Shown: piece by piece, positions 8,405 to 58,109 of the stretch | How the letters are laid out: the number at the start of each line of letters is the position of its first letter | Position numbering within the stretch: the first letter of the stretch is position 1 | Source: an uncultured Pseudomonadales bacterium | GTDB lineage: Bacteria; Patescibacteriota; Microgenomatia; UBA1400; PJMF01 | Assembly: GCA_964556485.1 (NCBI GenBank) | Contig: CAZKVV010000002.1 | Location: 74,291 to 138,290, forward strand | DNA length: 64,000 bases | Reading direction: 5' to 3' | Position numbers and translations under genes: made by a program | The notes under the pieces: generated by a model | The model's database searches: none | The model's input: only the letters and a program-made list of their open reading frames with translations | What the model was told of the DNA's origin: nothing

Positions 8405-8481
8405 TCTTGCTTTATCTATATCTTGGAAATACTATACTACAAAATCAGTTTGATGATGGGTTAGTAAAGATAGTTGTGATT

Positions 8482-11404: not shown

Positions 11405-11408
11405 AACT

Positions 11409-32008: not shown

Positions 32009-33586
32009 TTATTCCTTAATTTCCCAGTAGTTATCTTCCCATGATATCAATGTTTTCTCAACGGTACTTCTATCTGATTCTTTACCGATAAAATGAAAAC
32101 GATCTACTCTTTCACCATATCTAAATCCAATCCGATCGGGATTTTGTTTAATTATTGTTTGATAAAAAACATCTGGTGGTAACTGTAGATACCAAGCAAC
32201 TAACACATAGTGATACCCACCAACGTCTACAAATGCAATTTGTTCATCTGGGCGCTGCTCAACATTCTCTAAAGTACTCTTTAAACCGCCTTGGTATAAA
32301 GATCGCATTTGTTCAGGATATTTGGTGAAATATGTGTAAATATAGCTACTAAAAATGAGGATTGTGCTACTCAGAAATAATGTGGAAAGCATGAGCACGC
32401 TTTGTGAATTCTTAATTTTGCTAACTGCCAATTGTAATCCTCTTGTACCCACTAGTATCAATACAAAAAAGAAAAACAGACTTCGAGTTGTGTGTGGTGA
32501 ATCGACAGTGATACTTGCCGGGAGCAAACTAATTACCACCAATGCTAATAAAACTAAATCAGACTTCACTATCTTAAACTCTAGCTTCTTTTTTTGGATT
32601 AGTTTTATTCCAACTTCATAGATTAAACTAACAATACCAAGCATGCTGAAAAGGTACGCAGGTAACAAAAGATTTCCCCAATTGGGTAGTGTATGCCAAG
32701 GGTGTGATCCACCTCTAATAACAACAAAAGTTGGATCAAAACTTTTTACTAATGATTGAAGAATTAATCCTCCAAAATAGACATACTTATTTCCGATAAT
32801 TGGTTGTAATGCAGTAGGTAAAGAAAGCCGGTATTCGATCAAATTGGTATTTGTTAATTCGTCACTAAAAATAGTTATTGAGCTTTTTTGAGCAGTAAGT
32901 GAAGAAAGTATTGTGAAAAAAAAGATAGCCGCACCTGTATATAAACTTAGAGTAATGATCCATCTCTTCCAGTTTTTTATTCCATGCCAAAACACTAAAA
33001 CAACACTGATAAATGGAATATAGAGAAGTGGTGTGTTGTAGGTGGCACATGCCGCAAACATACAAAGACCAGCAAGTACTTGGAACCACCATTTTTGTTT
33101 GGAGATATATGCAAAATAGATTGAAACAACTAATAGTGCTAATCCAACATTAGCTTCAAATGCAATTCTGGAGTAGAAAAAAAACACTGGAGTGGTAGCT
33201 ATGAGAAAACTAAAAAGTAGTTGCCACTTTTTTTCTAACTTAAAATTTCCTGCAAAATAATACCCAGCAATAATCAGAATCATTCCTGCAACTGCTGATG
33301 GGAGTCTAACGACAGCATCACTTACACCAAAAATGCTGAAAAATGCTGTTAAAAGAAGTGGATATCCCAGTAATTTGTAATCTCCGAATGATTCCAATGC
33401 CATTGGCCACTTTCTTCCCCACTCATCCATCCCTACTTCTTTGAGTAAGTATCCGTTATATGCCAAAGCTGCTTCATCTCGATTGAGAATACTTTCAACA
33501 CCAAAATCCAACCAAACAAACCTCAAAATAATTGCAATACAACAAACACTTAGCAGGAAAATTTGATAGATCTTATTCATATGCAT
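32009..33586 (-). CDS. ArnT/PMT-like GT-C glycosyltransferase (GT39/GT83-type), SFGDYKLP subfamily
   Basis: First loop NRDEAALAYNGY (DE motif) ... ESFGDYKLLGYP ... VRLPSAVAGM. About 12 TM plus C-terminal soluble domain. Confidence 0.7.
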   Translation of the reverse strand: MHMNKIYQIFLLSVCCIAIILRFVWLDFGVESILNRDEAALAYNGYLLKEVGMDEWGRKWPMALESFGDYKLLGYPLLLTAFFSIFGVSDAVVRLPSAVAGMILIIAGYYFAGNFKLEKKWQLLFSFLIATTPVFFFYSRIAFEANVGLALLVVSIYFAYISKQKWWFQVLAGLCMFAACATYNTPLLYIPFISVVLVFWHGIKNWKRWIITLSLYTGAAIFFFTILSSLTAQKSSITIFSDELTNTNLIEYRLSLPTALQPIIGNKYVYFGGLILQSLVKSFDPTFVVIRGGSHPWHTLPNWGNLLLPAYLFSMLGIVSLIYEVGIKLIQKKKLEFKIVKSDLVLLALVVISLLPASITVDSPHTTRSLFFFFVLILVGTRGLQLAVSKIKNSQSVLMLSTLFLSSTILIFSSYIYTYFTKYPEQMRSLYQGGLKSTLENVEQRPDEQIAFVDVGGYHYVLVAWYLQLPPDVFYQTIIKQNPDRIGFRYGERVDRFHFIGKESDRSTVEKTLISWEDNYWEIKE

Positions 33587-35249
33587 ATAAAGCGTATCCT
33601 AAGTTGGGATAACTCTCAATTTCTTTTAATGACTCCTCAGAAAAAACTGATTTTACATAGCCAGGTTCACCTAAGAGTACCGAAAACTGCTTATCTCTCC
33701 TTAATGTATCTGCATTAAAGTGGATGTTTCCCATTTCTTGAGAGATTGGCATTCTACTATAAACCGTACCTGTGGTATTGAATTGTTTGACTTCATCTGC
33801 TGAGTACTCATACAGCAACAACCATAAGTACACTCGAGTATCAGGTGGATGAGCATACACAGCTTGATGCGATTTGCTGAGTTGGGCAACTAGTTGAGCG
33901 AAATCTGGGTATTCGCTTTGCCAAAAGACCTGACTCTTTTCAGGGTAGATCTTATCGTAGTGATGTAGAAATTGTGTAAAGAAAAAACTGCTAACCAGTA
34001 CTAATCCTATACCCAAAGCGGCACCAACGAGTTTATATTTGAATGATTCACAAAAAATAAGTATCTGATACGTGCCTATACCTATGATACTACTCAGAGG
34101 TACTAGAGCAAACAGTGAGCGTTGGGCATTTGGAACATCAAGTGGTATTGAGGCTGGTAGTATTCCAACAATTACCCATGTGAGCAAAAATAAGCCAAGT
34201 TTTTTTGATTTTGAAAACAGCCATGACATTCCTACTAACAATGGCAACAGCATTGTTAGGTTGAACAATCCTGATACTCCTGACCCGTGTCTCATGTTGC
34301 TATCACCGGTGAAAAAAAGGTAACGAGGATCAAGATGAGAAAAAACATTTTCTAGTAATTGCCTCAAGATAAATACACGTCGATTAAATAAAATGCTATC
34401 CAATTTAGAGGTAGCAACTGTTTGTACCTCATTTGCAGTTTGTACAAAAGTTGTAATATCTAGAACTGAATCTGTACTCATGCGAACAATTTGACTTGAT
34501 GTAAAGTGTTCAGAAAAATACATTGGTACAAGTGCTACATAAAAAAGCAAAAGCACACCTACTGCAGTTCCAATGCTGCTCATTATTTGTTTTAGCGACT
34601 TATTGCTTACTTCCAAAATACACAGCATCATAAAGATCACTGACCAAATATATTGTGCTGCATAGTAGGTATATGATGCGGCTATACCAAAAAAAAGCGC
34701 AACAGCATACCAATATGCTTGTTTGCGTATAAACCCTTGTAAGAGAGATGCTATTGAAATCAATACCAATGCTTGAGCAAGCATACTTTCAAATCCAACT
34801 AATGAAAAGTGAAATGCCCAAGGTGAGATACCAACCACAAATGCAGTCGATACCATCAGTTTCAGTCTATGAAGTTTAGGAGTTTGAGAGCCATATCTTT
34901 TTGTAATGACAAATGTAAGATATGCAGTTAGACAGATTGTTAGTAATCCTGATACTAAGCTCGGAATACGAACGAGCCAATCATATTCAGGTAACAATCG
35001 GTATAAGAAACTGACGATAATAATCAGACCTGGAAGTTTATAGTCTCCATAGGATGGATACAGTGGCTGTAACCAATGATTTCCATGAATATCATGGCCA
35101 AAATGAGCTACTGATCGAGCATCGACTGCAATTGCAACTTCATCCCAATATAAGGAGAGATTTTGACTGGAAAAAAATGCAACCCTAGCGATAATGCTCA
35201 CAAACAAAAGTAATGACACAACTACCCAGATAGAATGTTTGTAAAACAT
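33573..35249 (-). CDS. ArnT/PMT-like GT-C glycosyltransferase, SFGDYKLP subfamily
   Basis: YWDEVAIAVDAR ... PSYGDYKLPGL ... VRIPSLVSGLL. Confidence 0.7.
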   Translation of the reverse strand: MFYKHSIWVVVSLLLFVSIIARVAFFSSQNLSLYWDEVAIAVDARSVAHFGHDIHGNHWLQPLYPSYGDYKLPGLIIIVSFLYRLLPEYDWLVRIPSLVSGLLTICLTAYLTFVITKRYGSQTPKLHRLKLMVSTAFVVGISPWAFHFSLVGFESMLAQALVLISIASLLQGFIRKQAYWYAVALFFGIAASYTYYAAQYIWSVIFMMLCILEVSNKSLKQIMSSIGTAVGVLLLFYVALVPMYFSEHFTSSQIVRMSTDSVLDITTFVQTANEVQTVATSKLDSILFNRRVFILRQLLENVFSHLDPRYLFFTGDSNMRHGSGVSGLFNLTMLLPLLVGMSWLFSKSKKLGLFLLTWVIVGILPASIPLDVPNAQRSLFALVPLSSIIGIGTYQILIFCESFKYKLVGAALGIGLVLVSSFFFTQFLHHYDKIYPEKSQVFWQSEYPDFAQLVAQLSKSHQAVYAHPPDTRVYLWLLLYEYSADEVKQFNTTGTVYSRMPISQEMGNIHFNADTLRRDKQFSVLLGEPGYVKSVFSEESLKEIESYPNLGYALYAYE

Positions 35250-35255
35250 AGTGAA

Positions 35256-35261
35256 AGTATA
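35256..35261 (-). promoter_or_regulatory. Candidate -10 hexamer (TATACT) 6 nt upstream of ATG of 33573..35249
   Basis: Minus-strand sequence reads TATACT-ttcact-ATG. Confidence 0.3.
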
Positions 35262-35275
35262 ACCTATTTCCTGTG

Positions 35276-35281
35276 TATAAT
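35276..35281 (+). promoter_or_regulatory. Candidate -10 hexamer (TATAAT) 9 nt upstream of ATG 35291
   Basis: Plus-strand sequence reads tgtgTATAAT-ggagttacc-ATG. Confidence 0.3.
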
Positions 35282-35290
35282 GGAGTTACC

Positions 35291-36823
35291 ATGAAACTTC
35301 GATGGCTTGTGTTACTTATTGCAATTTTTTCACTCAGTTTTAGATTTTGGTTTTATGCAACTCACATTGTCGTTAATAATGACACTTTAAGAGATGCTCA
35401 GATTGTGGAAGAACTTTCCAGATCTAATACATTTTTCCCAGCTTATGGACCTAAGGCAAGTGTGGGAAATTTTTATTTACCTCCTTTGTACTATCAGATT
35501 CATCTTATTTTTTCTGTTGTTACCAACCATCATCCTTTGACAATGAATATCATCAATACTTTCATTGAAGCGCTGACACCCGTGTTACTGTTTCTACTTT
35601 TGTATGCAGCAGTAGAAAAAAAATTTGCTTTTGTGCTTTCACTCTTATATATAGTTGCACCACTACCTGTTATTTTTGGAACTAGAGCTTGGAACCCTAT
35701 CACTATTCCATTTTTTACTACACTAGCTTTGTTACTGTTTCTTGAGTATTTCAAAAATAAAACTGCTCAATTAATCCCTCTGATGACTCTGTCTATCGCT
35801 GTTGCCCTGCAACTTCATTATCAAACAGTAGTAGTCATTCCATTCTATTTTGGTGTTTTCTGTTGGAGCTTTTTAAAGAGAAAAGATGATAGAAAGTATT
35901 GGTTATTGGGCATTCTGCTTAGTTTGGCTACATTTATACCGTACTTTTGGGGTGAGTTCCACAATAATTGGAAAAACAGCATGGCAATGTATTCCTATTT
36001 TTTTGGAGAACATGCAAATTACTATGATAGAGTTTCAAAACCTGAATACCTTTTAACATTTTTACCTAGTTTTTTTGAAAGAATTCTGACAAATACAGTT
36101 CAGCCATCAATGTGGCTGGGCAGATTATTGATGATTACTGCAGTTGTTGGTTCTGCTCTAGCTGTAAAAAAACGGAAACAAAGTTTCAAAAAAATGGGAA
36201 TTTTATTGTTGTATGTAGCTAGTATATTTTTTGCCCTCAGAATGTATAAAGGCGACAAAATTGATTACTACATGAGTACCTTATTTATTGCACCAATTTT
36301 GTTTTTGGCAGTACTTTCACACATCAATGCAAAAGTTGCATGGGTGTTAACAGGACTGCTTATATTTGTAGCCGCAAGTGCATCTACATCCATCCCACAC
36401 TTTAATTCCTATCAAGATTTAAAAGTTGCGGTGCAAGACTTATCACAAAATTCAAGCAATGAAGGGTATAGATTTTTGTTTTATGATTTGAGACATGCTA
36501 ATACCATAAGTTACATTTTGTATAAAAATCCTGAGATACGTATCAATCAAAAGAGTAGTATGTTAGTCGAAGTTTTTGAATCAAATGCTACAGTACCAGA
36601 CTGGATTGACACCTGTGAGTCGAATGAAAAAGCAGCATCTTCTAATGGGTCATTTCCGGTTTTTAAATGCACCTATGAATATCAAGTACTGTCAGAAATT
36701 AAAAAATATTCTGATATGAGCTTTCAGTTTGGAAAGGTGAATGAGAAAGCTCGTGATATTGAAACGAAACATAGTGTTGATTCATCCCATGGTACGGATA
36801 TACTGCTAACAGAACTTTTTTAA
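35291..36823 (+). CDS. Polytopic membrane protein, GT-C-like candidate
   Basis: The track start at 35273 is GTG; the first ATG (MKLRWLVLL) is at 35291. About 12 TM, loop DTLRDAQIVEEL, C-terminal ~130-aa soluble domain. Confidence 0.4.
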   Translation: MKLRWLVLLIAIFSLSFRFWFYATHIVVNNDTLRDAQIVEELSRSNTFFPAYGPKASVGNFYLPPLYYQIHLIFSVVTNHHPLTMNIINTFIEALTPVLLFLLLYAAVEKKFAFVLSLLYIVAPLPVIFGTRAWNPITIPFFTTLALLLFLEYFKNKTAQLIPLMTLSIAVALQLHYQTVVVIPFYFGVFCWSFLKRKDDRKYWLLGILLSLATFIPYFWGEFHNNWKNSMAMYSYFFGEHANYYDRVSKPEYLLTFLPSFFERILTNTVQPSMWLGRLLMITAVVGSALAVKKRKQSFKKMGILLLYVASIFFALRMYKGDKIDYYMSTLFIAPILFLAVLSHINAKVAWVLTGLLIFVAASASTSIPHFNSYQDLKVAVQDLSQNSSNEGYRFLFYDLRHANTISYILYKNPEIRINQKSSMLVEVFESNATVPDWIDTCESNEKAASSNGSFPVFKCTYEYQVLSEIKKYSDMSFQFGKVNEKARDIETKHSVDSSHGTDILLTELF

Positions 36824-36827
36824 AAAT

Positions 36828-38540
36828 ATGAGAATCAACAAACATTTTTTCAATGCTTTTAGAAAACATATCATTTATATCGTTTTGATTTTAGTTGCAG
36901 CAGTCATGGGATCACTGCCATTACTGCACAGTGGACTTTATACTGCTCACGATATCTGGCATCAGGTGGCTAGGCTGTATCATTATTCAGAAGCAGTTTC
37001 GGATGGCCAATTTTTTCCAACCTGGATTAGCACCCTGTCCCAAGGTCATGGATATCCACTCTTTCTTTTTTCGTACCATTTTCCATGGATACTCGGAACT
37101 CCTTTAGTATTGATGGGGGCAAGTATTGAATTTGCCTTAAAGTTTCTTTTCTTTGTTGCATATCTTGCTTCCGGTTGGGCGATGTATGCATTAGCTTGGC
37201 ACATAACAAAAAATAAAACGGCTTCACTTGGAAGTGCTGTCTTGTACTTATTTGCTCCATATCACTTCTTAACAATGTATGTCAGTGCTGCTATTGGTAC
37301 ACAGTTTCAGTTTGCAATCTTACCACTGCTCTTTTTGGGAGCTGCTTGGATTTTGGACAAAAGGCCTAGATGGGGTTTTATTCTTTTAAGTATTTCAATT
37401 GCCACAGGAATTCTCACTCACCTCATAACCTTTGCATACTTTATGCTGGCATTGCTGCTGTATATTGCATTTATACTCTCGACCACGCACATTGCGGCTA
37501 ACAGAAAGCGGAAAATAGTTGCGTTGCTTTTTTTAAGTTTATTTCTTGGTATCTTGCTCTCAAGCTTCTATTTAGTTCCATTTGTTGCATACAAAAATGA
37601 AATCATTGCTTCTCTACCTGGAAATGGTTTTACAGATATATATAAAAGTAATTTTGCATCACTCCGTCAACTCATTTACTCAAAATGGGGGTTTGGCCCA
37701 ATAATTAGTAATGCTAAAGATGGTGAAATATCGTTACAAATTGGTATTGCACAATGGCTCGGTGCATTTTTTGCAACATTGCTTGTAATTACTTCAATGA
37801 TTTTTCGTAAAAAATTTAAAAATGAAAATGTGTTCTTTTTGTCTTTATTTGGACTAAGCATATTTGGAATGCTTAGCATATCCGAACCTCTTTGGAGTTT
37901 TGTAACTAAAATTGTTTCGTTTGATTATCCTTTTAGACTTTTGTTGATTAGTGTATTTTCTGGTTCACTGTTAGCTGCCTTTGTTATTACTTCAGTAAAA
38001 AAGTATAAACTCTTTTTATATGGTGCTTGTGGCTTTTTCATTATGATTGCGATGTACACAAATAGAAACCATATTAAGGTTAACTTATATACTGATGTTC
38101 CGCTCGATTTGTATGTAAGGTCTGAAACTACAACAAACACCTTTCATGAATATTTGCCGCTGGGTGCTAGTTCTCAGTTACTTTCAAAAGATGCGCAGTC
38201 TGTTGCAATTTCAGAGAATAAAACTTCAGTTCCAATTGTAAGTAATCTTGCACAAACAACTAACTCACTATTTTTTGATGTAGAAATCGCTACACCATCA
38301 GCCATTTCAATTAGTCAATTCTCTTTTCCTGGACAACGACTGTATGTTAACAAAAAATTTGTGGAACATAGTGTTGATGGCAGCGGTAGAATACAAACAA
38401 GTTTAACTGAAGGAAGACACAGTGTTCTCGTACAATATGAAGACACTACGCCAATATTATTTGGAAAAGTCTTAACAGTACTTGGAATGGTTTTTTTAGT
38501 AAGGTTTTACATTGCGGAAAGCAGAAAAGATGAAAAATAA
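36828..38540 (+). CDS. Polytopic membrane protein of HD-x-H-x-AR / GQFP / GYP-F family (paralog 2 of 3)
   Basis: TAHDIWHQVARLYHYSEAVSDGQFFPTWI ... HGYPLFLFSYHFP. Same architecture as 28542..30182. Confidence 0.5.
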   Translation: MRINKHFFNAFRKHIIYIVLILVAAVMGSLPLLHSGLYTAHDIWHQVARLYHYSEAVSDGQFFPTWISTLSQGHGYPLFLFSYHFPWILGTPLVLMGASIEFALKFLFFVAYLASGWAMYALAWHITKNKTASLGSAVLYLFAPYHFLTMYVSAAIGTQFQFAILPLLFLGAAWILDKRPRWGFILLSISIATGILTHLITFAYFMLALLLYIAFILSTTHIAANRKRKIVALLFLSLFLGILLSSFYLVPFVAYKNEIIASLPGNGFTDIYKSNFASLRQLIYSKWGFGPIISNAKDGEISLQIGIAQWLGAFFATLLVITSMIFRKKFKNENVFFLSLFGLSIFGMLSISEPLWSFVTKIVSFDYPFRLLLISVFSGSLLAAFVITSVKKYKLFLYGACGFFIMIAMYTNRNHIKVNLYTDVPLDLYVRSETTTNTFHEYLPLGASSQLLSKDAQSVAISENKTSVPIVSNLAQTTNSLFFDVEIATPSAISISQFSFPGQRLYVNKKFVEHSVDGSGRIQTSLTEGRHSVLVQYEDTTPILFGKVLTVLGMVFLVRFYIAESRKDEK

Positions 38541-39264
38541 AGATCAGAAAGTTATTGCTGTAATGCCTGCATATAATGCAGCCAGAACTCTCAAAAAAAC
38601 GGTAGCAGATATTCCAGCAAATACCGTTGATAAGGTTATTCTTGTTGACGATCATAGTTCAGATGAAACCGTTAAGGTTGCAAAAGAACTGAACTTAACT
38701 GTTGTTACTCATCCACAAAATAGAGGCTACGGTGGTAATCAAAAAACATGTTACACGCTAGCCCTTTCTGAAGGTGCTGATGTAGTCGTTATGATTCATC
38801 CTGATTATCAATATGATAGTTCATTAACTGCTGAGATGGTTAAACCTATTTTAGAAGGTAAATGCGATGTTATGCTGGGTTCTCGCATACGAACAAGAGC
38901 TGAAGCACTTGCTGGCGGCATGCCAAAATATAAGTACATTGGTAATCGTTTTTTAACGTTAGTTGAAAATACTGTGCTTGGCCAAAATTTATCTGAGTAT
39001 CACACTGGGTTTAGAGCATTTAGTAAAAAATCATTAGAAAATTTGCCGTTTCACACCTATTCTGACGATTTTGTTTTTGATTCTCAAATATTATTTGGTT
39101 GTATTGCAAATAATGAAAGAATTGGTGAAATCTCAGTTCCAGTTAGATACTTTGAGGAAGCATCATCAATCAATTTCTGGAGAAGTTGTATTTACGGCTT
39201 AACAATCTTAAGAGATTTATTGATTTATTCAGTTACAGGTGGTAAATACTTCATTAAACATTAA
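38530..39264 (+). CDS. Short GT2 polyprenyl-phosphate glycosyltransferase (DPM1-like)
   Basis: The track start at 38512 is TTG; the ATG at 38530 is preferred. KVIAVMPAYNAARTL ... ILVDDHSSDET ... GYGGNQKTCY ... DVMLGSR. Confidence 0.75.
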   Translation: MKNKDQKVIAVMPAYNAARTLKKTVADIPANTVDKVILVDDHSSDETVKVAKELNLTVVTHPQNRGYGGNQKTCYTLALSEGADVVVMIHPDYQYDSSLTAEMVKPILEGKCDVMLGSRIRTRAEALAGGMPKYKYIGNRFLTLVENTVLGQNLSEYHTGFRAFSKKSLENLPFHTYSDDFVFDSQILFGCIANNERIGEISVPVRYFEEASSINFWRSCIYGLTILRDLLIYSVTGGKYFIKH

Positions 39265-40970
39265 TTATCGCTACAACTGCTTTCAGTAAGCAATGAGTGT
39301 GAATCATAGACATACACATAGGTATGTACTCCGTTTGACGCTTTTCCTTGGTAGAGCTGGTTAGCTTGTTCTATCTTTTGATCAGTCACATAGACCGATT
39401 CTTGATTATTCTGCTGTGCTTTACAACCCACTGCTTCTAAGGATTCACTAGAAGCCGTCACTCTTCCCAATTCGACAGTGTGTTGAAAGCCTGAACTTTC
39501 TAACTCACCTAACTTTGCAAGTTGTTGGTATTGTTTTGGCGGTAGCTTAGTATAAAAAGCATAAAACATAATAGGGTCAGAATAAAAAGGTTTGAAGTGG
39601 ATCTGAGTTGACTCAGGCAGGGTTTGTAAGTATGAATGCAGATCTGGAAGGTACGATTGATAATAATATTCATTTTTTGTGGTATGAACCGCAAAGTACT
39701 CGGTGAAATACAAAACACTGTAGCCAGCAAGAATAAGAGATAGAGATATAAGCAATAGATTTCTCATTCTCTTGTGCGCGAACTCTAACACTATTTTTAT
39801 ACCAAATATGATCACAATTAAGACAAAGGGATACCACATTGAAAGTCGGACTTTTTGTGGATCTCCAGAGAGAATTGTAGGAATTGGTGATAGCAGTAAA
39901 CCAATTAAAACTACCAGTCTTTGGTGAGTGGACATGTTTTTTCCAACCATGAAAAGTCCAACTAACCCAATGACAAAAAAAGGATACACAATTGGGTAAA
40001 ATTGACCAAATCCATCTTGTGATAAGAAAATGAGATCATCTTCACCAGATGAGACTAAGTAATTTGGTGAAAAAGCAGCAAGGTATCTCTGTGTAAGCAT
40101 CCGGGAAACGAGCACTGGTTTATTCCAGACGGCATCGCAGAGAAGTCTGGGATACTGCATATCACAAAAGGTTCTACTTTCATCAATTTTGAGCACAAGA
40201 CCTGGATCTGAAAAGATACCTACTTGATGTAATCTGGTGCCGTTTACACCGATGACGCTAGGTGCAAAAAATGGTACGATCAGCGAGAGAAAACTGAACA
40301 AAAACACTGCAAGATGTTCTCTCTTTATTTTTTCAATAAAAAACAGCCAAAGTAGTCCAAAAATCCAAAGTAAGGCAGTGATTGGTCGGTAAGCGATGTA
40401 GCTATACCAGGTAAGTGATAAAGCAACACCAGACAACAAGAACCAATACCAGTTCCTTTGTCGAACTGCTCTAAAATAGGAAGCTAAACCTACTAGAAGA
40501 CAAAAGAGAGCTATGTTTGATTCAAAACCAAATCGACTTAGGAAAAATGGCCAAGGGCTGAGAGCTGTAATCAATGCACCAAGGGTGCTCAGTTTCTTGC
40601 CAAATGAAAACTCTCTGAGCAACCAATACGATGCTAGTATTGATGCAACACCAATGAGAAGTGATGGCACTCTTATTGCAAAAATACTCAGACCCCAAAG
40701 AGCGACGGGAAGAATATCAAGGTATGCCATTGCAGGTAATTTTTGATCACCAAAGCCTTTAAAAATGAGTGGCCATTTTTGGTTGTGCTCGTCTGCCCCC
40801 GTTTGCAACAGTGACTGAGCTATATATCCAAAATGGAGCTCATCTATCAGTGCCCCCTTAGGGGCTCTATCTATCTGCCAGATTCTCACACAAAATCCCA
40901 GCACTACTATTAACAGTAGCACGAGGATGGGATACAATGATTTGAGTGTCGTTTTTGTATATTTTTTCAT
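39261..40970 (-). CDS. ArnT/PMT-like GT-C glycosyltransferase, SFGDYKLP subfamily
   Basis: The track start at 41012 is TTG; the ATG (MKKYTKTTL) is at 40970. LIDELHFGYIAQ ... KGFGDQKLPAMAY ... IRVPSLLIGV. Confidence 0.7.
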   Translation of the reverse strand: MKKYTKTTLKSLYPILVLLLIVVLGFCVRIWQIDRAPKGALIDELHFGYIAQSLLQTGADEHNQKWPLIFKGFGDQKLPAMAYLDILPVALWGLSIFAIRVPSLLIGVASILASYWLLREFSFGKKLSTLGALITALSPWPFFLSRFGFESNIALFCLLVGLASYFRAVRQRNWYWFLLSGVALSLTWYSYIAYRPITALLWIFGLLWLFFIEKIKREHLAVFLFSFLSLIVPFFAPSVIGVNGTRLHQVGIFSDPGLVLKIDESRTFCDMQYPRLLCDAVWNKPVLVSRMLTQRYLAAFSPNYLVSSGEDDLIFLSQDGFGQFYPIVYPFFVIGLVGLFMVGKNMSTHQRLVVLIGLLLSPIPTILSGDPQKVRLSMWYPFVLIVIIFGIKIVLEFAHKRMRNLLLISLSLILAGYSVLYFTEYFAVHTTKNEYYYQSYLPDLHSYLQTLPESTQIHFKPFYSDPIMFYAFYTKLPPKQYQQLAKLGELESSGFQHTVELGRVTASSESLEAVGCKAQQNNQESVYVTDQKIEQANQLYQGKASNGVHTYVYVYDSHSLLTESSCSDN

Positions 40971-40991
40971 TTTAAACGTCTCTTCTATCAG

Positions 40992-40997
40992 TATTAT
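40992..40997 (+). promoter_or_regulatory. Candidate -10 hexamer (TATTAT) 5 nt upstream of ATG 41003
   Basis: Plus-strand sequence reads TATTAT-cacat-ATG. Confidence 0.25.
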
Positions 40998-41002
40998 CAC
41001 AT

Positions 41003-42796
41003 ATGCACACAAAGAAAAACATAACTTTTTTACTACTGCTCTTTTTTTTCATTCTAACTAGCAGACTTTATAAAATATCCAGTGTTCCCAGCGTTATTAG
41101 TCATGATGAAAATTATTATCCAGTGCAAGCAAAAACAATTGCTGTAGCATTTACCGATCCGTCTGGCACTTGGAATCCTCTTAGCCTTACTGCTGCTAAT
41201 CCGCTCTATGCTGAATTGCCGGGTTTGATTATGGCACCCGCGAGTGCATTCTCCAATCCACTACTTGCTGCAAGATTTACTCATGCATTACTTGGTAGTT
41301 TGTTGGTTTTAGTTTTGGCTGGTATCGCTCACACTGTCACCAAGAATCGAATATTTTTCTTGTCAGTCTATCTGATTGGTTTCCTTAACCCTTGGCTTTT
41401 TCAATTTTCACGAATGAACTTTGATGCCCTTTTTAGTCTCTTTTTCTACTTTACAGGAATTTTTCTATTCCTGCAAAAATCACCCCAAATTAAATTACTT
41501 TCAGTTTTCTTTTTCTTAGTTGGCTTCTTCCAATATCAGGGACTCAAAATTGTACTTTTGCCACTGACTGTAGTTCTGTTACTTTTTGAATACGCTTGGC
41601 AAAGTAGTATTAAAAAGCGTTCTATTAGCAACTTTTACCCTAATATTGCTTTGGGTTTAGGTGTGGTTCTAGTTACTGTATATTTTTTGTTAACCTTATC
41701 TGGACAAAGTGCGAGCAGCAGAGCAAGTGATACCATTTTTTCTGACCCCACTATTGCTGCTCAAGTACAAGTGCAGCGACAACAAACTATTGTTAACCCA
41801 GTAGTGCAACTATTTAATAACAAGTTCACCGTTGTAGGTCAAACTTTTCTGAGCAACTATCTTGCTAGTTTTAATATCAATCAACTTTTTAATACTGGTG
41901 AATCGCTACGGAATCCTTTTTCAGTGTGGTCAAAAGGTATGTTTTATCCACTCGATTTAGTTTTGATTGTAGTAGGTTTCTTTGCTCTCTATTCTGTTAA
42001 AAAAACTAGACCATTTGCCATTATGTTGTTATTACTTATTTTGATCGCACCTCTACCATCTGCAATTAATGCAAAAGGATTATGGATCATGTTTAGAAGT
42101 AGTTTATATGTGCCAGTTTTCGTTTTGCTTGCTGGTGCAGGAGTATCCTACTTGATTACAAAACACAAATTAATTGCTCTCCTTGTTATGACTATCTATA
42201 TGCTGTTTGTTTCCAGTTTTTTTTATGAATATTTTTTCCGTTATCCAACCATCGGCACATCTGGAAATTATTTTTCAGAAAGGATTGTGGCAAGCTATCT
42301 CAAAAGAAATGCAGGTCTCTCAACAGTTGTTTTAGTTGACGAAAAACAGTTTGTGTACAATGCACTACTGCACTTTAATCAGCTTATCTCACCGGCAACT
42401 TTGGGAGAAATTAAAAAAAGCTATCAGTCAGATACGTATAGTATTGGCAGTATTAGCATTGACAATCGTTGTGTATCAACAACAGAGATTTTATCGGGGA
42501 CAACTGTGATAGCAGCGGCACATATTCCCTTTTGTGTTGAATCACACTCACCGATAGTTGAAGTTGCCCCTTTCACATCGGCCATACAATCACTCATTGA
42601 TAGTGGTGAACAGTTTATCATCTACAATGATCCTTTGTGTAGCAGTTATCAACTTGGTTCCAGTTCACATGTTACAACTGACGTTTTTGCCATTGAATCA
42701 TTATCAGATAAAGAGTTTTGTGAGAACTTTTTTGCACAAACATCGGTGTCAAAACGAATTATCCCAACGGTCATGCAATCAGATTTAGTGATCTAA
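41003..42796 (+). CDS. ArnT/PMT-like GT-C glycosyltransferase (divergent paralog)
   Basis: SHDENYYPVQAK (DE motif) in the first loop. About 12 TM plus a ~170-aa C-terminal soluble domain. Confidence 0.55.
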   Translation: MHTKKNITFLLLLFFFILTSRLYKISSVPSVISHDENYYPVQAKTIAVAFTDPSGTWNPLSLTAANPLYAELPGLIMAPASAFSNPLLAARFTHALLGSLLVLVLAGIAHTVTKNRIFFLSVYLIGFLNPWLFQFSRMNFDALFSLFFYFTGIFLFLQKSPQIKLLSVFFFLVGFFQYQGLKIVLLPLTVVLLLFEYAWQSSIKKRSISNFYPNIALGLGVVLVTVYFLLTLSGQSASSRASDTIFSDPTIAAQVQVQRQQTIVNPVVQLFNNKFTVVGQTFLSNYLASFNINQLFNTGESLRNPFSVWSKGMFYPLDLVLIVVGFFALYSVKKTRPFAIMLLLLILIAPLPSAINAKGLWIMFRSSLYVPVFVLLAGAGVSYLITKHKLIALLVMTIYMLFVSSFFYEYFFRYPTIGTSGNYFSERIVASYLKRNAGLSTVVLVDEKQFVYNALLHFNQLISPATLGEIKKSYQSDTYSIGSISIDNRCVSTTEILSGTTVIAAAHIPFCVESHSPIVEVAPFTSAIQSLIDSGEQFIIYNDPLCSSYQLGSSSHVTTDVFAIESLSDKEFCENFFAQTSVSKRIIPTVMQSDLVI

Positions 42797-44449
42797 GTCG
42801 AAAAAATACCAGGTATCAGAACCGATTTCACCCTCATTTGATTCAATAACTAGATAATCTCTAGCAAAATCTTTGTTACGGCTCACCAATAATCCTGTTT
42901 TTGTGGAACTATCTGCAACCAATGGAACTTGAGCAAAATCATAGTAATACTTGCCAAATGATGCTACTTTTTTGTATCCAATTGAGTCTACCCACACAAC
43001 TGATTTTTGAAAATCAGCTGGTTCAACCTGAGAATAAAAGGCCTGAAAAATATACGGTGAGTCTATTGTTCTATTTCTATTGCTGGTACCGTTTGGATCG
43101 ATGAAGATGTAATCGTACTTCGATTCCAATTCGTGAACGCGTTGGGCAACCTTTCTATATCCAGGTAACCATAATGGATCAAGATTCCATTGATGAATGA
43201 AAAAGTATCGAGCAAAAAAGAGTACATAACTAGCTGAAAAACCTGCTATAAGCAGTGATAACACTATTTTTTTCTTTTCAGAAGTCCACAAAGTGAATAT
43301 TCCTATCGCCGCAAAAATGGTGATGACAAAATGAAAATCGAGCAATCTATTTGTAACCGGTGCATCAATGGTAAGCGCATCTGGAATTGGTGAGAGTAGC
43401 AAATATGAAACAAGAAATAGCACCGTTTTCTTAGACTTTAATGAACCTGTAACCGCAGAGTATGCACCATAGACCGTCAAAGGCAAAATGAACCATGACA
43501 AATTCCCAAAACCTATATTTGAAAGCGAGTGCCAACCATTACTTCCTCCTTTTACAAACAAATACACAGGATTAAAGGCTGCCAAATACCCATTGATAAA
43601 ATCTGTGGAAAATTCGTACAGCGGAGTTGCAATAATTTGTCTGATTCGATGTTGTTCTACAGGTGTTTGTAAGAGTAAGAAATAGTAGTCATTGTATGAA
43701 TTAGCATATTTTGTTGGATCAATAATAGTGGCTTCTAATTTTCCAGTTGTTACGGTACTCATCAGCATGTAAATACCAATTACGAGTAAAAAGAGAATGC
43801 AAAACCCAACGCGTGTTTGTAGTTTGCCATTTTTAAAGTATTCTGAACGAAAAATGAGTATCAAAGATAAAAACAGCGGTGGAGATAGTAGCAATGCTAC
43901 ATTGTAAAACAGATAACTTAGTCCAAGTGCAATTGCAGCAAAAAAGAAATAGAACCATTTTTTTCTAGCTTTTAATAGAAAGGTTAACCCTAGTACGAAC
44001 AGTGTCAGACTCGCAATTGGTTCATATGCCGTTCTTGAGAGAAACGTGTGCCAAACTGAAAATGTAATCAAAACAGAAGTGATGATTGCAAGTTTTTTTG
44101 AATTAAAAAGTTCTTTAACAAATAGGTATGAAATAGGTACTAAAAGAGTCCCAAGAAGCGCTGTCCCAATTCTTGCTGCAAAGGGAGTAAAACCAAAAAT
44201 CTGGATGAAAAATGCCGTAAGATACACTAATCCTGGAAGTTTATAATCACCGAACGATTCGAAAAAAAATGGATATGGACCTGCTCCATGTTCATCATAC
44301 CCAGTTTTTAAAACCGAGTATCCAGAATAGGCAATACTTAACTCGTCACGATGCAGTTCTTTGGGTGTGTTGGATAGTGATGCAGTCCTCGCATACAGTG
44401 CAAAGATAGTTAAAAGCGCAAGCAGAAATGGGATCAGAAATCTTTTCAT
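42785..44449 (-). CDS. ArnT/PMT-like GT-C glycosyltransferase, SFGDYKLP subfamily
   Basis: HRDELSIAYSGY ... ESFGDYKLPGLVY ... ARIGTALLGTLL. Confidence 0.7.
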   Translation of the reverse strand: MKRFLIPFLLALLTIFALYARTASLSNTPKELHRDELSIAYSGYSVLKTGYDEHGAGPYPFFFESFGDYKLPGLVYLTAFFIQIFGFTPFAARIGTALLGTLLVPISYLFVKELFNSKKLAIITSVLITFSVWHTFLSRTAYEPIASLTLFVLGLTFLLKARKKWFYFFFAAIALGLSYLFYNVALLLSPPLFLSLILIFRSEYFKNGKLQTRVGFCILFLLVIGIYMLMSTVTTGKLEATIIDPTKYANSYNDYYFLLLQTPVEQHRIRQIIATPLYEFSTDFINGYLAAFNPVYLFVKGGSNGWHSLSNIGFGNLSWFILPLTVYGAYSAVTGSLKSKKTVLFLVSYLLLSPIPDALTIDAPVTNRLLDFHFVITIFAAIGIFTLWTSEKKKIVLSLLIAGFSASYVLFFARYFFIHQWNLDPLWLPGYRKVAQRVHELESKYDYIFIDPNGTSNRNRTIDSPYIFQAFYSQVEPADFQKSVVWVDSIGYKKVASFGKYYYDFAQVPLVADSSTKTGLLVSRNKDFARDYLVIESNEGEIGSDTWYFFDLDH

Positions 44450-46116
44450 TTTTCTTCAGCAACAAGTAACTGCCATACAACTGTATCTGATAAATTAGAA
44501 ACAGTTTTTAACGGAGTAAACTGATAATCCGGATTGAGACTCTCAAACTTTGAAACTTCTTCTGGAGCTGCTGCAATGATACTTGACTCTGATAACTGGG
44601 GAATTTCTCTGTAAAAGCTTTTATTTTCAAATGTCAAAAACTCACCTTGATCAAACATGGCAGTCTTGGATGCAGTTTGCACTCTTCTTGGATCTGTTTT
44701 TGAATAAAACCAGTAGTACATTGCTGGTCGACCTTCAATTCTTGATACGTACACTGGATATTCTGGCAGTTCTCTCTCGAGGGAATTGAGTTCGCTAATC
44801 ATCTGAGTGTAACCGTACTGCCATTCATCATTAGACACCTTTGGATAGATTAAAAAATAATATCTTAGGTATTGTAACGAGCTGATTGAGTAGGCAAAAA
44901 TCAAGAGAACCACTGCATGGTTGGCAACTTTTTTCTTGCGAGCTATCTCCAAAAATGAGGTAATTCCTGCAGTAATATACAGGATGAACACTGGCATTGA
45001 TGGGAGTGTTCTGAGGGCATGTGGTACAGCTTTAGTGAGAGCTGCAGGAAAGAGTGTCACAAGTAACCAAATGAGTAAAAAGACACTCGCAGCTTTGTTC
45101 TTATTCCAAAGATAGATAAAACCTAAACCTAAAAATACTGATTCAAAAATATAAAAGAGGCCGGCAAAATGAGTTGAGTGTCTGATGTTTTCATCCCCTC
45201 TCAAGAACATGTAGGTGGGTGAAAAGTGTGAAACAGCATTTTCCAGTATCACCTGAGAATACAAAACATATCTGTGGTAGATAATTCGGGAAAACATAGT
45301 CATATCACTTTGTTCTCTCAGTGCGTTACTCATTTCAATTATTGCAGCATCACCAAAAATGCTGGTTTCTTGAAATCTGTGAGATAGTTCTGGACTTGAG
45401 GCTTTTAAAAACAGTGGTACATACAAAATAAAACAGGTACCAAGTATAATTCCAGAAATTTTAATTGTTGCGGAAAACTGACGTACCACCAGATCTCTAT
45501 ACACAAAAATAACGCTACTCAAGCATAAAATGGGGGCAATAACTCTTGCTGCATGATAGGTGTAACCAGCTGCTACAAAGAGTAAAGCGCTACCAACAGC
45601 AGCTAAAATCCAGGTTTTTCTTTTTAGTTTCCATTGATGCTTGGCTGTAAAAACACCAATAACTCCCCAAACAAGCAGTGAGGTTGCAAAATTAGCTTCC
45701 CACATGCTCCTGCTAAACTGAATTGCCCATGGGGAGATAGCAGCAACTGCCAATGCCCACAGTCCATTGAGATGTAGTTTTCTTGCCAAGACAGCAACTC
45801 CAATAACTATGAGTACTCCAGCTAGGGCGTTTGGAAGTCTAACTGCAAAATCGGATAATCCAAACAGAGCTAAAGATGGCAGTAATGCATAAAAATAGCC
45901 AGTAGGTTTCCAGTCACCAAACGACTTGATTGCAATAATTGGCCAAACAGCATCATGATGATCCTTGCCCGTTTTTAACAGTGAGTAAGCATCATAGCCT
46001 ACTGCAACTTCTTCCCAATATAAGCTTGGAGGGACGTTTGTAAGCTGATACAGTCTTAAAAAGGCTGCGACTCCAAAAATGAAAATAATGAGCAGAATGT
46101 GTAATTTATTGTTCAT
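44446..46116 (-). CDS. ArnT/PMT-like GT-C glycosyltransferase, SFGDYKLP subfamily (EE variant of DE motif)
   Basis: YWEEVAVGYDAY ... KSFGDWKPTGYFY ... VRLPNALAGVL. Confidence 0.7.
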   Translation of the reverse strand: MNNKLHILLIIFIFGVAAFLRLYQLTNVPPSLYWEEVAVGYDAYSLLKTGKDHHDAVWPIIAIKSFGDWKPTGYFYALLPSLALFGLSDFAVRLPNALAGVLIVIGVAVLARKLHLNGLWALAVAAISPWAIQFSRSMWEANFATSLLVWGVIGVFTAKHQWKLKRKTWILAAVGSALLFVAAGYTYHAARVIAPILCLSSVIFVYRDLVVRQFSATIKISGIILGTCFILYVPLFLKASSPELSHRFQETSIFGDAAIIEMSNALREQSDMTMFSRIIYHRYVLYSQVILENAVSHFSPTYMFLRGDENIRHSTHFAGLFYIFESVFLGLGFIYLWNKNKAASVFLLIWLLVTLFPAALTKAVPHALRTLPSMPVFILYITAGITSFLEIARKKKVANHAVVLLIFAYSISSLQYLRYYFLIYPKVSNDEWQYGYTQMISELNSLERELPEYPVYVSRIEGRPAMYYWFYSKTDPRRVQTASKTAMFDQGEFLTFENKSFYREIPQLSESSIIAAAPEEVSKFESLNPDYQFTPLKTVSNLSDTVVWQLLVAEEK

Positions 46117-47767
46117 CAGTTAAAAAGAATAAAAATCTAATACTATCATCGGCACCTTTAATAACATGCGTTGCTCTCTCTCTGGGAATATCCAAGTCTG
46201 AACCGCTAGCAACAATAAGTGCATTTGAACGTTGGAAATCAGCAATAGAAATAGGATCAGTAAAGTGGTAAGTACTGAGCGATCCACCATGATATGCAAT
46301 TGGGTTAGTCTTTCTAGCAAATAAAGCAAAAATATATGGTTGTCCGTACTCTGAGGTGAATACTATCTTGTCAACTTTTCGTTTTCCATTTAATCCGAGC
46401 TCATATTCTCTTGCCAACTGAAAGGCTTCAACATACCCTTCTGCGTAATCTTGAGTTGCCAATTTGGGAAAAACAGAATAGTAGTGATGCTGATATGCAA
46501 TAAAAAATAAAAAGTATAAAGCTATGATCGTACCAATAAATGCATGCACAATTCCGTTTTTTTCATCATGCGAACCTAAAAGCTTATGGTTGGTTTGCGT
46601 TTGTCCTAAATACGAAACAACATATTGAGCTGCTTGTACTGCAGCCAGCAAAAAACCAATGCTTGCAAGCAATCCTCTATTTGAATGTGGAACATCAGTT
46701 GTAATTATGGCTGGTATCAATCCTGCAAATAAGAAAGTAAGTATAATGATGTCTGTTTTTTTAAGTACTAATTTTCTTTTTGTTGCAATAATAAAAATGA
46801 TTCTAATAAAGTATATGCACACCAAAAGATAGGTAATTGGATTTAGAACCCCCCATTTGCCATCAGAATGTCGCAGGGTTGTTGTTGCACCTTGTATGAG
46901 AAATGCTGGTGAAAGATGCAGTGCAAGGTTTTTTCCAACACTCACAACTGCTGTTGAAAGATTTTGGTTGGAAAAGAGTGTCACATTGGCTCTTGTTAAG
47001 CCAGATCCCCAAAATGAGTCGTACAGCAGCGGAATGAGCAGGATTGTAGCTAATAATACAGCGATGCCCACCGGTTTGTATAACGAAATAATTCTTTTTC
47101 CATACAGAAACAAAAAGACTACGAGAACAAACGGAATTACGATTTTTGCACTATGGTATGCATACAAAGCTAAGACAAAGCTAACACCAGATGCCAGCAT
47201 TGAAAAAAAAACTTGCTTACTAAGCGCACTTCTCAATCCATAGAGCAAGAAGTACAGTCCCCACACATATAAAGTTAATGCTAATCCAGATTCAAATGCA
47301 CCCCTACTAAAATGGATATGCCAAGGTGAAAAAGTGAGTAAAGCAGCAAAAAGCAGACTGAGTTGTTTTCTTTTGGGATCAGAATAAAAAAGTTCGCTTG
47401 CTAATAGGCAACTACCTAAAATTGTTGCAACACCTGCTAGCACAAAAGGCACTCGCACCGCAAAGACAGTTAATCCCAAGATTGCAGTAAAAAAACTACT
47501 CATGTAGATTGCGAGTGGTGCTTTATAATCACCGAAAGATTGAAACGAAATCGGCAGCTTATGTAACCATTCATCTCTTCTGGTGTTCCAAATTGCAAAA
47601 CCGTTATAGCCTATTGCAGTCTCATCCCAAGTTAAACCGGCTGGAATAGCTGTAAACTGATAGCCTCTTATCAATAAACTGATGAGAAGTAGTAGTACTA
47701 CACCCACCCAGTACCAATTTTTAGCCAACTGGGATAAAAACTTAGTCATAGTATTAGTATACGCCAA
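46106..47767 (-). CDS. ArnT/PMT-like GT-C glycosyltransferase, SFGDYKLP subfamily
   Basis: TWDETAIGYNGF ... QSFGDYKAPLAIY ... VRVPFVLAGVA. Confidence 0.7.
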   Translation of the reverse strand: MAYTNTMTKFLSQLAKNWYWVGVVLLLLISLLIRGYQFTAIPAGLTWDETAIGYNGFAIWNTRRDEWLHKLPISFQSFGDYKAPLAIYMSSFFTAILGLTVFAVRVPFVLAGVATILGSCLLASELFYSDPKRKQLSLLFAALLTFSPWHIHFSRGAFESGLALTLYVWGLYFLLYGLRSALSKQVFFSMLASGVSFVLALYAYHSAKIVIPFVLVVFLFLYGKRIISLYKPVGIAVLLATILLIPLLYDSFWGSGLTRANVTLFSNQNLSTAVVSVGKNLALHLSPAFLIQGATTTLRHSDGKWGVLNPITYLLVCIYFIRIIFIIATKRKLVLKKTDIIILTFLFAGLIPAIITTDVPHSNRGLLASIGFLLAAVQAAQYVVSYLGQTQTNHKLLGSHDEKNGIVHAFIGTIIALYFLFFIAYQHHYYSVFPKLATQDYAEGYVEAFQLAREYELGLNGKRKVDKIVFTSEYGQPYIFALFARKTNPIAYHGGSLSTYHFTDPISIADFQRSNALIVASGSDLDIPRERATHVIKGADDSIRFLFFLTDEQ

Positions 47768-55624: not shown

Positions 55625-55634
55625 CGGCACTACT

Positions 55635-58061: not shown

Positions 58062-58109
58062 CTCCTGCACATTCCATTTACACTAACCGCTGAAGAGATC
58101 AATCAAAAC

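Follow-up and report, generated by a model that had tools for sequence, protein, structure and literature searches.

Why should one locus of a Patescibacteria (CPR, Microgenomates-like) genome carry a whole series of similar polytopic membrane proteins, and what would such proteins build? The question is raised by a 64-kb stretch of DNA, here called the window, of which about 55 kb are taken up by envelope glycan genes. A first-pass annotation had listed nine large ORFs between positions 32009 and 47767, and all nine are found at the coordinates given; the starts placed at 35291 and, elsewhere in the window, at 8482 and 28542 fall on ATGs inside somewhat longer ORFs. By all-against-all BLASTP and hhalign, seven of the nine are paralogs of one family in tandem (family A; genes are named below by their lower coordinate), set within a cell-surface sugar island of 60 kb. 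Six of these (32009, 33573, 39261, 42785, 44446 and 46106) are 24–28% identical to each other over approximately 450–550 residues (BLASTP E 1e-17 to 1e-41), and 41003 belongs to the family at a greater distance (BLASTP E 2e-20 to 44446; hhalign E 4.6e-47 to the family profile). Judged by these comparisons, the similarity among the paralogs is far beyond chance.

On the minus strand are encoded 32009–33586 (525 aa; family HMM 2e-128), 33573–35249 (558 aa; family HMM 2e-115; BLASTP E 2.7e-41 to 44446), 39261–41012 (583 aa as a mechanical ORF), 42785–44449 (554 aa; the copy with an AlphaFold2 (AF2) model), 44446–46116 (556 aa; family HMM 6e-155) and 46106–47767 (553 aa; family HMM 2e-116), and only the divergent 41003–42796 (597 aa) lies on the plus strand, opposite to the other family-A copies. 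The likely start of 39261 is M15, at approximately position 40970. Interspersed are three plus-strand genes outside family A: 35273–36823, 36828–38540 and 38512–39264. The strand thus switches repeatedly within the array (35273–39264 plus, 39261 minus, 41003 plus, 42785 onward minus), and the array genes overlap at their junctions by 4–14 bp in an operon-like manner.

To which enzymes are these proteins related? The Pfam model PMT_2 (PF13231; GA 26.1 bits) is passed by three of the seven, namely 32009 (29.4 bits), 39261 (31.3 bits) and 42785 (39.9 bits), 44446 (20.5 bits) and 46106 (22.5 bits) are sub-threshold, and 41003 and 33573 are unmatched, the latter being without any Pfam match; PMT (PF02366) is passed by 42785 only (29.7 bits vs a threshold of 22.7). 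When the PDB was searched with the family profile, ArnT (5EZM) was the sole significant match; it was reached by the profile alone, a phmmer search of the PDB with the single sequence of 42785 having returned nothing relevant. In three dimensions there is similarity to solved GT-C enzymes, with AftA, AftB, AftD, PimE and EmbA among the significant structural matches. The GT-C identity proposed for the array proteins is borne out by HMM and structure comparison, with no other membrane family indicated, and among the GT-C glycosyltransferases the seven ORFs are most plausibly a diverged lineage of the PMT_2/ArnT/PMT group, with polyprenyl-phosphate-sugars as their predicted donors. Membership in two better known families was considered and rejected: ArnT (GT83), because its YxEKPP motif gives way here to GD[YW]K[LA]P and no ArnA, ArnB or ArnD domains are found among the window proteins (the ArnC equivalog model was matched in the window far below its cut-off), and the mycobacterial Emb/Aft/PimE families, because the seven paralogs have no Pfam match to arabinosyltransferase or GT87 families.

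Topology was taken from the AF2 helices, hydropathy prediction being inconsistent among the paralogs (8–11 helices), so that its charge bias is unreliable for some of them. The AF2 helices give 11 transmembrane segments (TM) with the N-terminus inside and a C-terminal domain of approximately 130 aa outside, and in this arrangement the short loops hold 15 Lys plus Arg residues on the cytoplasmic side and 1 on the external side. In this model the conserved acidic pair and the other conserved motifs face the outside, and the DE loop, the long first extracytoplasmic one, lies outside, as had been proposed, and not in the cytoplasm.

The acidic pair itself, a D/E-E located approximately 13 residues after TM1, is kept in all seven copies (RDE, RDE, WDE, IDE, WEE, WDE and HDE; EE replaces DE in 44446), exactly as claimed for the first extracytoplasmic loop, and is of the catalytic type. 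The alignment contains ten columns invariant in all seven (R21, E36, D52, R93, G100, S138, Y182, G315, P356 and R368 in the numbering of 42785); E36, D52, R93 and R368 do not vary among 75 family members either, D35 is kept in at least 90% of these 75, and K70 of 42785 shares an alignment column with the EKPP Lys of ArnT. A second motif, proposed as (E/K/Q)SFGD(Y/W/Q)K(L/A)P in six copies, is real, but the pattern was drawn slightly too strictly: 42785 (ESFGDYKLP) and 46106 (QSFGDYKAP) are accompanied by ESFGDYKLL in 32009, PSYGDYKLP in 33573, KGFGDQKLP in 39261 and KSFGDWKPT in 44446, so that the true consensus is [SG][FY]GD[YWQ]K. The divergent 41003 retains DE, D52, R93 and R368 and is without the GD-K motif. 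The helix described as VRLPSALAG is likewise present with an invariant Arg, its sequence in 42785 being ARIGTALLG. The six core paralogs share 34.5% identity in the first external loop (EL1), against 20.1% for EL4 and 16.7% for the C-terminal domain; that EL1 is conserved while EL4 and the C-terminal domains diverge agrees with a common donor chemistry and differing acceptor specificities.

Family A is not the only such group. In all, the window has 14 or more GT-C genes, which fall into about six families, and the ORFs that had been called GT-C-like by architecture only hold up as well. Of these, 2077–3690 (minus strand, 537 aa) has a GT-C fold and represents a conserved family that Pfam and NCBIfam models miss; 8407–10578 (plus, 723 aa) is of the PMT_2 type (33.5 bits, above GA) with a weak LA_3751/3752-family match; and 27349–28602 (minus, 397–417 aa) is Gpi18/PIG-V-like, itself without a Pfam match, many of its homologs (44–51% identity) carrying PF04188 and the name "Gpi18-like mannosyltransferase". 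The public annotation of 27349 likewise takes the start that yields 397 aa. Of the two ORFs interspersed in the array that were also thought to be GT-C-like, 35273 (516 aa, YLPPLYY motif) is a distant, weak PMT_2 relative (18 bits, below GA; prob 88%, E 3.3e-6 to the family-A profile over residues 6–225 by hhalign), and 36828 (570 aa, HD motif after TM1) is a polytopic protein of the PF10131 type (family B; 23.5 bits, just below GA). Two further family-B proteins, 28542–30182 (37.8 bits) and 53852–55630 (49.1 bits; BLASTP E 1.4e-4 to 46106), both on the minus strand, score above GA for PF10131; the three family-B paralogs find each other by BLASTP with E 1e-30, and the profiles of families A and B are remotely related (prob 84.7%, E 6.7e-6). 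The ORF at 6662–8392 stays unassigned, since it matches nothing in Pfam or NCBIfam, hhalign against families A and B and the family of 2077 gave nothing significant, and a metagenome scan returned no relatives; the partial ORF at 2–829 (minus) has no Pfam match.

A putative donor-synthesis module on the minus strand (24692–26431) consists of two short GT2 genes (24692–25399 and 25742–26431) enclosing a gene for a small DUF2304 membrane protein (25392–25745; 53.6 bits, above GA), and a third short soluble GT2 of 250 aa (38512–39264; Glycos_transf_2 75 bits) lies inside the array. The best NCBIfam matches are AglJ for 24692 (126.6 bits), PpgS for 25742 (106.9 bits), and AglJ (87 bits), PpgS (72 bits) and dolichyl-P-hexose transferase (55 bits) for 38512, so that the three may be called polyprenyl-P-sugar-synthase-like by best match, at scores far below every equivalog cut-off. 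Of 28 long related loci, 23 have a short GT2 no more than 10 kb from family-A genes, as counted with a GT2 HMM that does not discriminate the synthase subtype. Export could be served by an ABC-2 permease and ATPase pair of the glycopolymer exporter type (10625–12152, plus; ABC2_membrane 70.6 and ABC_tran 80 bits), by a Wzx-type flippase (52356–53864, minus; Polysacc_synt_3 171 bits) and by two further Wzx-like proteins (837–2090, minus, and 12155–13690, plus; Polysacc_synt 64.7 and 102.6 bits, respectively). A LytR-CpsA-Psr (LCP) protein of the type that ligates glycopolymers to peptidoglycan (55677–56807, plus; LytR_cpsA_psr 93.8 bits) is followed by candidate genes for RmlB, RmlC and RmlD of dTDP-rhamnose synthesis (57033–59554, plus), which are recognized by Pfam domains only (GDP_Man_Dehyd/Epimerase 268.7, dTDP_sugar_isom 100.4 and RmlD_sub_bind 164.5 bits), the putative RmlB from an SDR-type dehydratase match and its position. 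The island also encodes a UDP-GlcNAc 2-epimerase and a UDP-ManNAc-type dehydrogenase. Within the window, no GtrA-type flippase, RmlA or priming phosphoglycosyltransferase was found, nor any tRNA or Rfam family.

Taken as a whole, the island is best read as one in which family A decorates or extends a wall-linked glycopolymer on the outside of the cytoplasmic membrane, a reading that we consider probable, though by no means assured. The short cytoplasmic GT2s (24692, 25742 with its DUF2304 partner, and 38512) would charge polyprenyl phosphate with single sugars, the lipid-linked donors would be flipped to the outer face, possibly via the Wzx-like proteins, and each GT-C paralog would there move a sugar from its polyprenyl-P-sugar to a different position of the glycopolymer. 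To make the backbone, GT2 and GT4 enzymes of the island would draw in the cytoplasm on precursors that include dTDP-rhamnose and UDP-ManNAc(A); the ABC-2 or Wzx systems would then carry the polymer out, and as the last step the LCP protein would join it to peptidoglycan. It should be noted that the island may also serve several unrelated glycans rather than a single pathway.

The paralogs could instead be PMT-like (GT39) protein O-glycosyltransferases, which would transfer mannose or other sugars from polyprenyl phosphate to Ser/Thr of various secreted and surface proteins such as pilins, S-layer or adhesin-like proteins. We regard this as unlikely: the PMT threshold is reached by one copy of seven, the PDB match of the family profile is ArnT and not PMT, the array is embedded in an island of the wall-polysaccharide type (LCP, ABC-2 exporter, rml genes), and bacteria that have PMT usually have it in one copy. 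Less probable still is that the paralogs build a membrane-anchored lipoglycan (LM/LAM-like, or another glycolipid-anchored polymer) by stepwise elongation and branching on the outside, as do PimE, Mpt, Emb and Aft in mycobacteria. The mycobacterial enzymes among the structural matches speak for it, the 14 GT-C genes, with a Gpi18/PIG-V-like one among them, recall the mycobacterial repertoire, and there are three PpgS/Ppm1-like GT2s in the window; against this, the seven paralogs match neither the arabinosyltransferase nor the GT87 models of Pfam, genes for phosphatidylinositol mannosides are not seen in the window, and the LCP ligase speaks for a product linked to peptidoglycan.

How old is the array, and how special? 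A relative with 69% identity, from an independent assembly, shows identical synteny. Positional orthologs are 48–69% identical in the related loci L001 and L002 and 34–46% in L003, L004 and L006: 32009 has them in L003 (41%) and in L001/L002 (58%), 33573, 44446 and 46106 each in L002, L003 and L004, 39261 in six further genomes, and 41003, in identical position and orientation, in L002 (61%) and in L003, L004, L006 and L010 (41–43%). In a neighbor-joining tree (built with capped distances) every paralog falls into a separate clade with its own orthologs, so that the duplications must be old; as far as sequence comparison can tell, the seven copies are anciently duplicated and individually conserved. 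An assembly artefact or a recent duplication was rejected, because the copies are only 24–28% identical and the synteny is repeated in independent assemblies. That the copies are alternative, variably expressed cassettes for surface variation, only some of them active at once for phage or host evasion and not as a sequential pathway, is very improbable, for the strand switches and the 2 to 8 copies per locus among relatives would fit, but every copy is matched by a positional ortholog that is conserved even where orthologous proteins of the two genomes share no more than 35–69% identity, all copies are intact with their putative catalytic residues kept, and the junction overlaps are operon-like.

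Nor is the array unique. Scanning with a profile from a 19-sequence alignment showed that most related Patescibacteria loci hold 4–8 copies per 21 kb (range 2 to 8), so that, by these profile matches, such arrays are common in related Patescibacteria. The six genes had been said to define a subfamily by their SFGDYKLP loop; this is not upheld, the motif belonging to a very large metagenomic family (approximately 9,000 clusters at E ≤ 1e-30) whose members are already labelled GT39/ArnT-like automatically in the databases. In the literature, no paper was found that treats both CPR/Patescibacteria and GT-C, GT39, GT83, PMT_2 or ArnT. The enzyme type is well known; it is the density of GT-C genes in CPR that is undescribed.

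Patescibacteria are believed to live attached to other cells, and we know of no experimental work on their cell-envelope glycans. In cultivated Saccharibacteria glycosylation has been called "unexplored" (PMC11623550). That the seven-fold paralogy is old and has been maintained suggests a surface structure which is complex and of selective importance. It is conceivable, though we remain doubtful, that Microgenomates-type CPR bear on their surface a highly branched glycopolymer (or a coat of glycoproteins) of a kind not yet known, built largely outside the membrane by at least seven dedicated family-A GT-Cs together with other GT-C families, one of them without a Pfam or NCBIfam model. If so, no denser cluster of GT-C genes would be known, and it would stand in a genome that has otherwise shed biosynthesis; the coat would be a main determinant of how these ultrasmall, presumably host-attached cells recognize partners and phages or are recognized by them. 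The window in any case provides concrete biochemical candidates (donor synthases, GT-C enzymes and an LCP ligase). Since the enzyme class and the pathway logic are well established, this is a lead for CPR biology and not a new mechanism.

How do these parts compare with known systems? ArnT (GT83; 5EZM/5F15 from C. metallidurans) is only approximately 10–12% identical to family A and has YxEKPP where family A has GD[YW]K[LA]P, and the Ara4N pathway genes of the arnA/B/D type are absent from the window; Patescibacteria are thought to have neither an outer membrane nor lipid A. From PMT (GT39; Pmt1-Pmt2 6P25, Pmt4 9E61) family A differs in having no MIR domain and, as C-terminal domain, an unrelated small alpha/beta domain, in the failure of six of the seven copies to pass the PMT model and in having seven copies instead of one. 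The likeness to mycobacterial Emb/Aft/PimE assembly that had been suggested is indeed there, but the decoration by GacIJKL in Gram-positives and the PpgS/Rv3632/Rv3779 system are equally close. The streptococcal group A carbohydrate system (GacI/GacJ/GacK/GacL) and the three-component systems (GtrABV, CsbB/GtcA/YfhO) have the same kinds of parts as the window: a synthase-type GT2 (here by best match only), DUF2304, Wzx-type and GT-C proteins, an ABC exporter, LCP and rhamnose genes; that these parts also act together in the window is presumed from their co-location. For streptococci, GacI, J, K, L and DE and LCP have been linked experimentally to biosynthesis of the carbohydrate, and the DUF2304 proteins GacJ and Rv3632 act as stimulators of GacI and PpgS, respectively (10.1101/180810). 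Streptococci, however, have one GT-C per side chain, whereas here the GT-C genes number 14 or more and represent about six families, and no GtrA-type flippase was found in the window. Mycobacteria, with PpgS (Rv3631)/Rv3632/Rv3779 and Emb/Aft/PimE, likewise have many GT-Cs acting outside on polyprenyl-P-sugars, as is predicted here, and in both a PpgS-like GT2 adjoins a DUF2304 protein. Yet the mycobacterial envelope GT-C genes are scattered and belong to other families (GT53, GT85, GT87 and others), whereas here seven of one family stand in tandem in a genome of probably approximately 1 Mb.

The nine large open reading frames (ORFs) that the first-pass annotation had listed between positions 32009 and 47767 of the window were all recovered in a mechanical ORF list, which additionally contains a 250-amino-acid ORF at 38512-39264. 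When the 52 ORFs of this list with 150 or more amino acids were compared all against all by BLASTP, the proteins starting at 32009, 33573, 39261, 42785, 44446 and 46106 proved mutually homologous over nearly their full length (24–28% identity; E = 1e-17 to 1e-41). 41003 is related to them more distantly (E = 2e-20 versus 44446; E = 4.6e-47 versus the family profile in hhalign). This bears out the proposed array of seven paralogs, here called family A. An alignment of the seven sequences revealed ten invariant columns, an acidic pair (D/E-E) in all seven approximately 13 residues past TM1, and the arginine-containing start of the VR...G helix that had been noticed previously, with R93 (numbering of 42785 throughout) being invariant. 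An SFGDYKLP-type motif is indeed present in six of the seven copies, but the pattern originally proposed was slightly too strict, the true consensus being [SG][FY]GD[YWQ]K. Within a 75-sequence family alignment E36, D52, R93 and R368 are invariant, and D35, E53, G67, D68, K70, R139 and E143 are conserved to at least 90%. The array genes mostly overlap at their junctions by 4–14 bp. The divergent paralogs 39261-41012 (minus strand) and 41003-42796 (plus strand) have mechanical ORFs that share 10 bp at their 5′ ends; if the minus-strand gene starts at M15, as is likely, the start codons are still only about 32 bp apart, so that there is almost no space for two promoters, and this arrangement is kept in the related loci L001/L002.

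Family-A paralogs belong to the GT-C superfamily; every testable feature agrees with this. In Pfam, 32009, 39261 and 42785 exceed the gathering score of PMT_2 (the last also that of PMT), 44446 and 46106 match PMT_2 at sub-threshold scores, and nothing matches 33573 or 41003. NCBIfam matches of the paralogs are weak and all sub-threshold. Searched against the PDB, the family profile found one relevant sequence, that of ArnT (5EZM/5F15; E = 4.5e-6). The profile alignment spans TM2-TM6 and places K70 on the lysine of ArnT 'KPPFHMW', which we take to contact undecaprenyl phosphate. 42785-44449 was modelled with AlphaFold2 from 75 sequences (pLDDT 92.7, pTM 0.93), and the top 39 Foldseek matches of this model in the PDB are all GT-C enzymes, among them STT3, AglB, PglB, ArnT, Pmt4, DPY19, ALG9/12, AftA/D and PimE; profile and structure comparison thus point to GT-C rather than to a non-glycosyltransferase membrane family. 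The model has 11 TM helices, and with the N-terminus placed inside its short loops carry 15 Lys plus Arg on the cytoplasmic versus 1 on the outer side. The loop with the acidic pair is thereby predicted to be extracytoplasmic, as had been suggested, rather than cytoplasmic. The loop-borne motifs (D35-E36, D52-E53, GD-K, R139/E143 and the TIDAP segment) all lie on the outer side, as does the C-terminal alpha/beta domain; R93 is found at the outer end of TM2 and R368 at that of TM10. Judged from this model, the paralogs are outward-facing GT-C enzymes.

Several further ORFs, previously regarded as GT-C-like by architecture only, proved to have relatives of this kind. ORF 35273-36823 is weakly related to PMT_2 (18 bits; hhalign probability 88%) and 8407-10578 is above the PMT_2 threshold; 27349-28602 itself has no Pfam match, and many of its homologs (44–51% identity), which one source names Gpi18-like mannosyltransferases, carry PF04188. 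A second family consists of 36828-38540, 28542-30182 and 53852-55630 (E about 1e-30 among themselves in BLASTP), with PF10131 above threshold in two of the three and just under it in 36828 (23.5 bits); a profile-profile comparison shows its remote kinship with family A (probability 84.7%, E = 6.7e-6). Counted with family A and the GT-C-fold protein 2077-3690, there are therefore at least 14 GT-C genes in the window. Possibly another unrecognised GT-C is 6662-8392 (minus strand), a 576-amino-acid polytopic protein with a 'DWYDYPYY' loop after TM1 and a C-terminal soluble domain of about 144 residues. It has no match in Pfam or NCBIfam, profile comparison with the GT-C families of the window gave nothing significant, and a metagenome pattern scan found no relatives. 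The N-terminal 276 residues of a polytopic membrane protein cut by the left end of the window (2-829, minus strand) have no Pfam match; the protein could be Wzy- or ligase-like.

Nearly the whole window consists of envelope-glycan genes, with TrmD and GluRS marking the edge of the island. Encoded are three Wzx-type proteins, an ABC-2 permease/ATPase pair, several GT4 and GT2 enzymes, methyltransferases (FkbM-type and others), a UDP-GlcNAc 2-epimerase and a UDP-ManNAc-type dehydrogenase, several SDR epimerases/dehydratases, candidates for RmlB, RmlC and RmlD (by Pfam domain) and an LCP ligase. For the short GT2s 24692 and 25742, and for 38512 within the array, the best NCBIfam matches are to the polyprenyl-phosphate-sugar synthase models AglJ, PpgS and dolichyl-P-hexose transferase, all far below cut-offs. 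Between 24692 and 25742 lies a gene for a 117-amino-acid DUF2304 (GacJ/Rv3632-type) membrane protein (25392-25745, minus strand; 53.6 bits), too short for the ORF list. Both GacJ and Rv3632 are DUF2304 proteins that bind or stimulate a synthase, GacI (for GlcNAc-P-Und) and PpgS, respectively, and what these synthases make is used by the GT-C enzymes GacL and Rv3779 (10.1101/180810). The position of the DUF2304 protein between GT2s suggests a GacI/GacJ-like polyprenyl-phosphate-sugar synthase complex. Distinct from the PpgS/AglJ-like GT2s are three paralogous GT2s of 257–298 amino acids on both flanks of the array (31233-32006, 49678-50517 and 51460-52356, minus strand; E = 1e-20 to 1e-31). All three share a C-terminal tail that is conserved and amphipathic or hydrophobic. 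The island also encodes a 360-amino-acid protein (15285-16367, minus strand) with weak matches to Pec_lyase/GH127/prenyltransferase-like alpha-alpha toroid repeats.

Family A is large, and multi-copy arrays are a clade-wide trait: a profile search of 1.84 billion representative proteins yielded 9,007 clusters at E ≤ 1e-30 (24,653 at E ≤ 1e-10), and among 35 loci from GTDB species representatives nearly all long ones contain 4–8 members per roughly 21 kb (family HMM). In related loci, 68 of the 113 full-length members have the motif [SGA][FYW]G[DN].K. Homologs with organism names are mostly from Patescibacteria (Gottesman-, Woese-, Levy-, Beckwith-, Collier- and Pacebacteria), and existing database labels are 'GT39 family', 'phospholipid carrier-dependent glycosyltransferase' and 'ArnT-like'. 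Several GTDB representative genomes with the same CPR-type arrays are titled 'uncultured Pseudomonadales/Gammaproteobacteria/Rhodobacterales bacterium' (L002, L003, L005, L008, L009, L020, L022-L024, L026, L030, L031, L034 and L036), and the Pseudomonadales label is also found on one NCBI protein (1.08-Mb contig); since these records carry the same array, such titles are probably placeholders or wrong.

In the L001/L002 relative (69% identity) gene order and orientations are identical to those of the window array. Positional orthologs of each copy share 48–69% identity in L001/L002 and 34–46% in L003, L004 and L006, versus only 24–28% between copies within the window. In a neighbour-joining tree of 107 family members each of the seven paralogs is in its own clade, joined by genes from 1–10 other genomes, and all seven copies are intact with the invariant residues kept. 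We propose that the short GT2s would make polyprenyl-phosphate monosaccharides which, flipped to the outer face, would be the donors for the family-A GT-Cs. Each GT-C would attach a sugar to a different site of a glycopolymer, for which the ABC-2 or Wzx systems may serve as exporter and the LCP enzyme as the ligase that joins it to peptidoglycan. Rival explanations are that the paralogs are enzymes of protein O-glycosylation or of lipoglycan assembly. That they are variation cassettes is disfavoured because the orthology of the array copies is conserved. Among the six core paralogs extracytoplasmic loop 1 is most conserved (34.5% identity), and loop 4 (20.1%) and the C-terminal domain (16.7%) are least so, a pattern that would be expected for shared donor chemistry and different acceptors.

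Two points stand out: how densely GT-C genes are packed in this reduced genome, and a GT-C family without Pfam match (2077-3690, minus strand). Literature searches on CPR with GT-C, GT39 or GT83 enzymes retrieved no paper linking them. The family-A paralogs are not ArnT orthologs, since they share neither its YxEKPP-type motif nor its pathway context; with respect to PMT/GT39, 42785 is the one of the seven above the Pfam PMT threshold. Nor are they members of the Emb/Aft family. As far as can be read from the genes, the system would work like GacIJKL-type or mycobacterial extracytoplasmic glycosylation.
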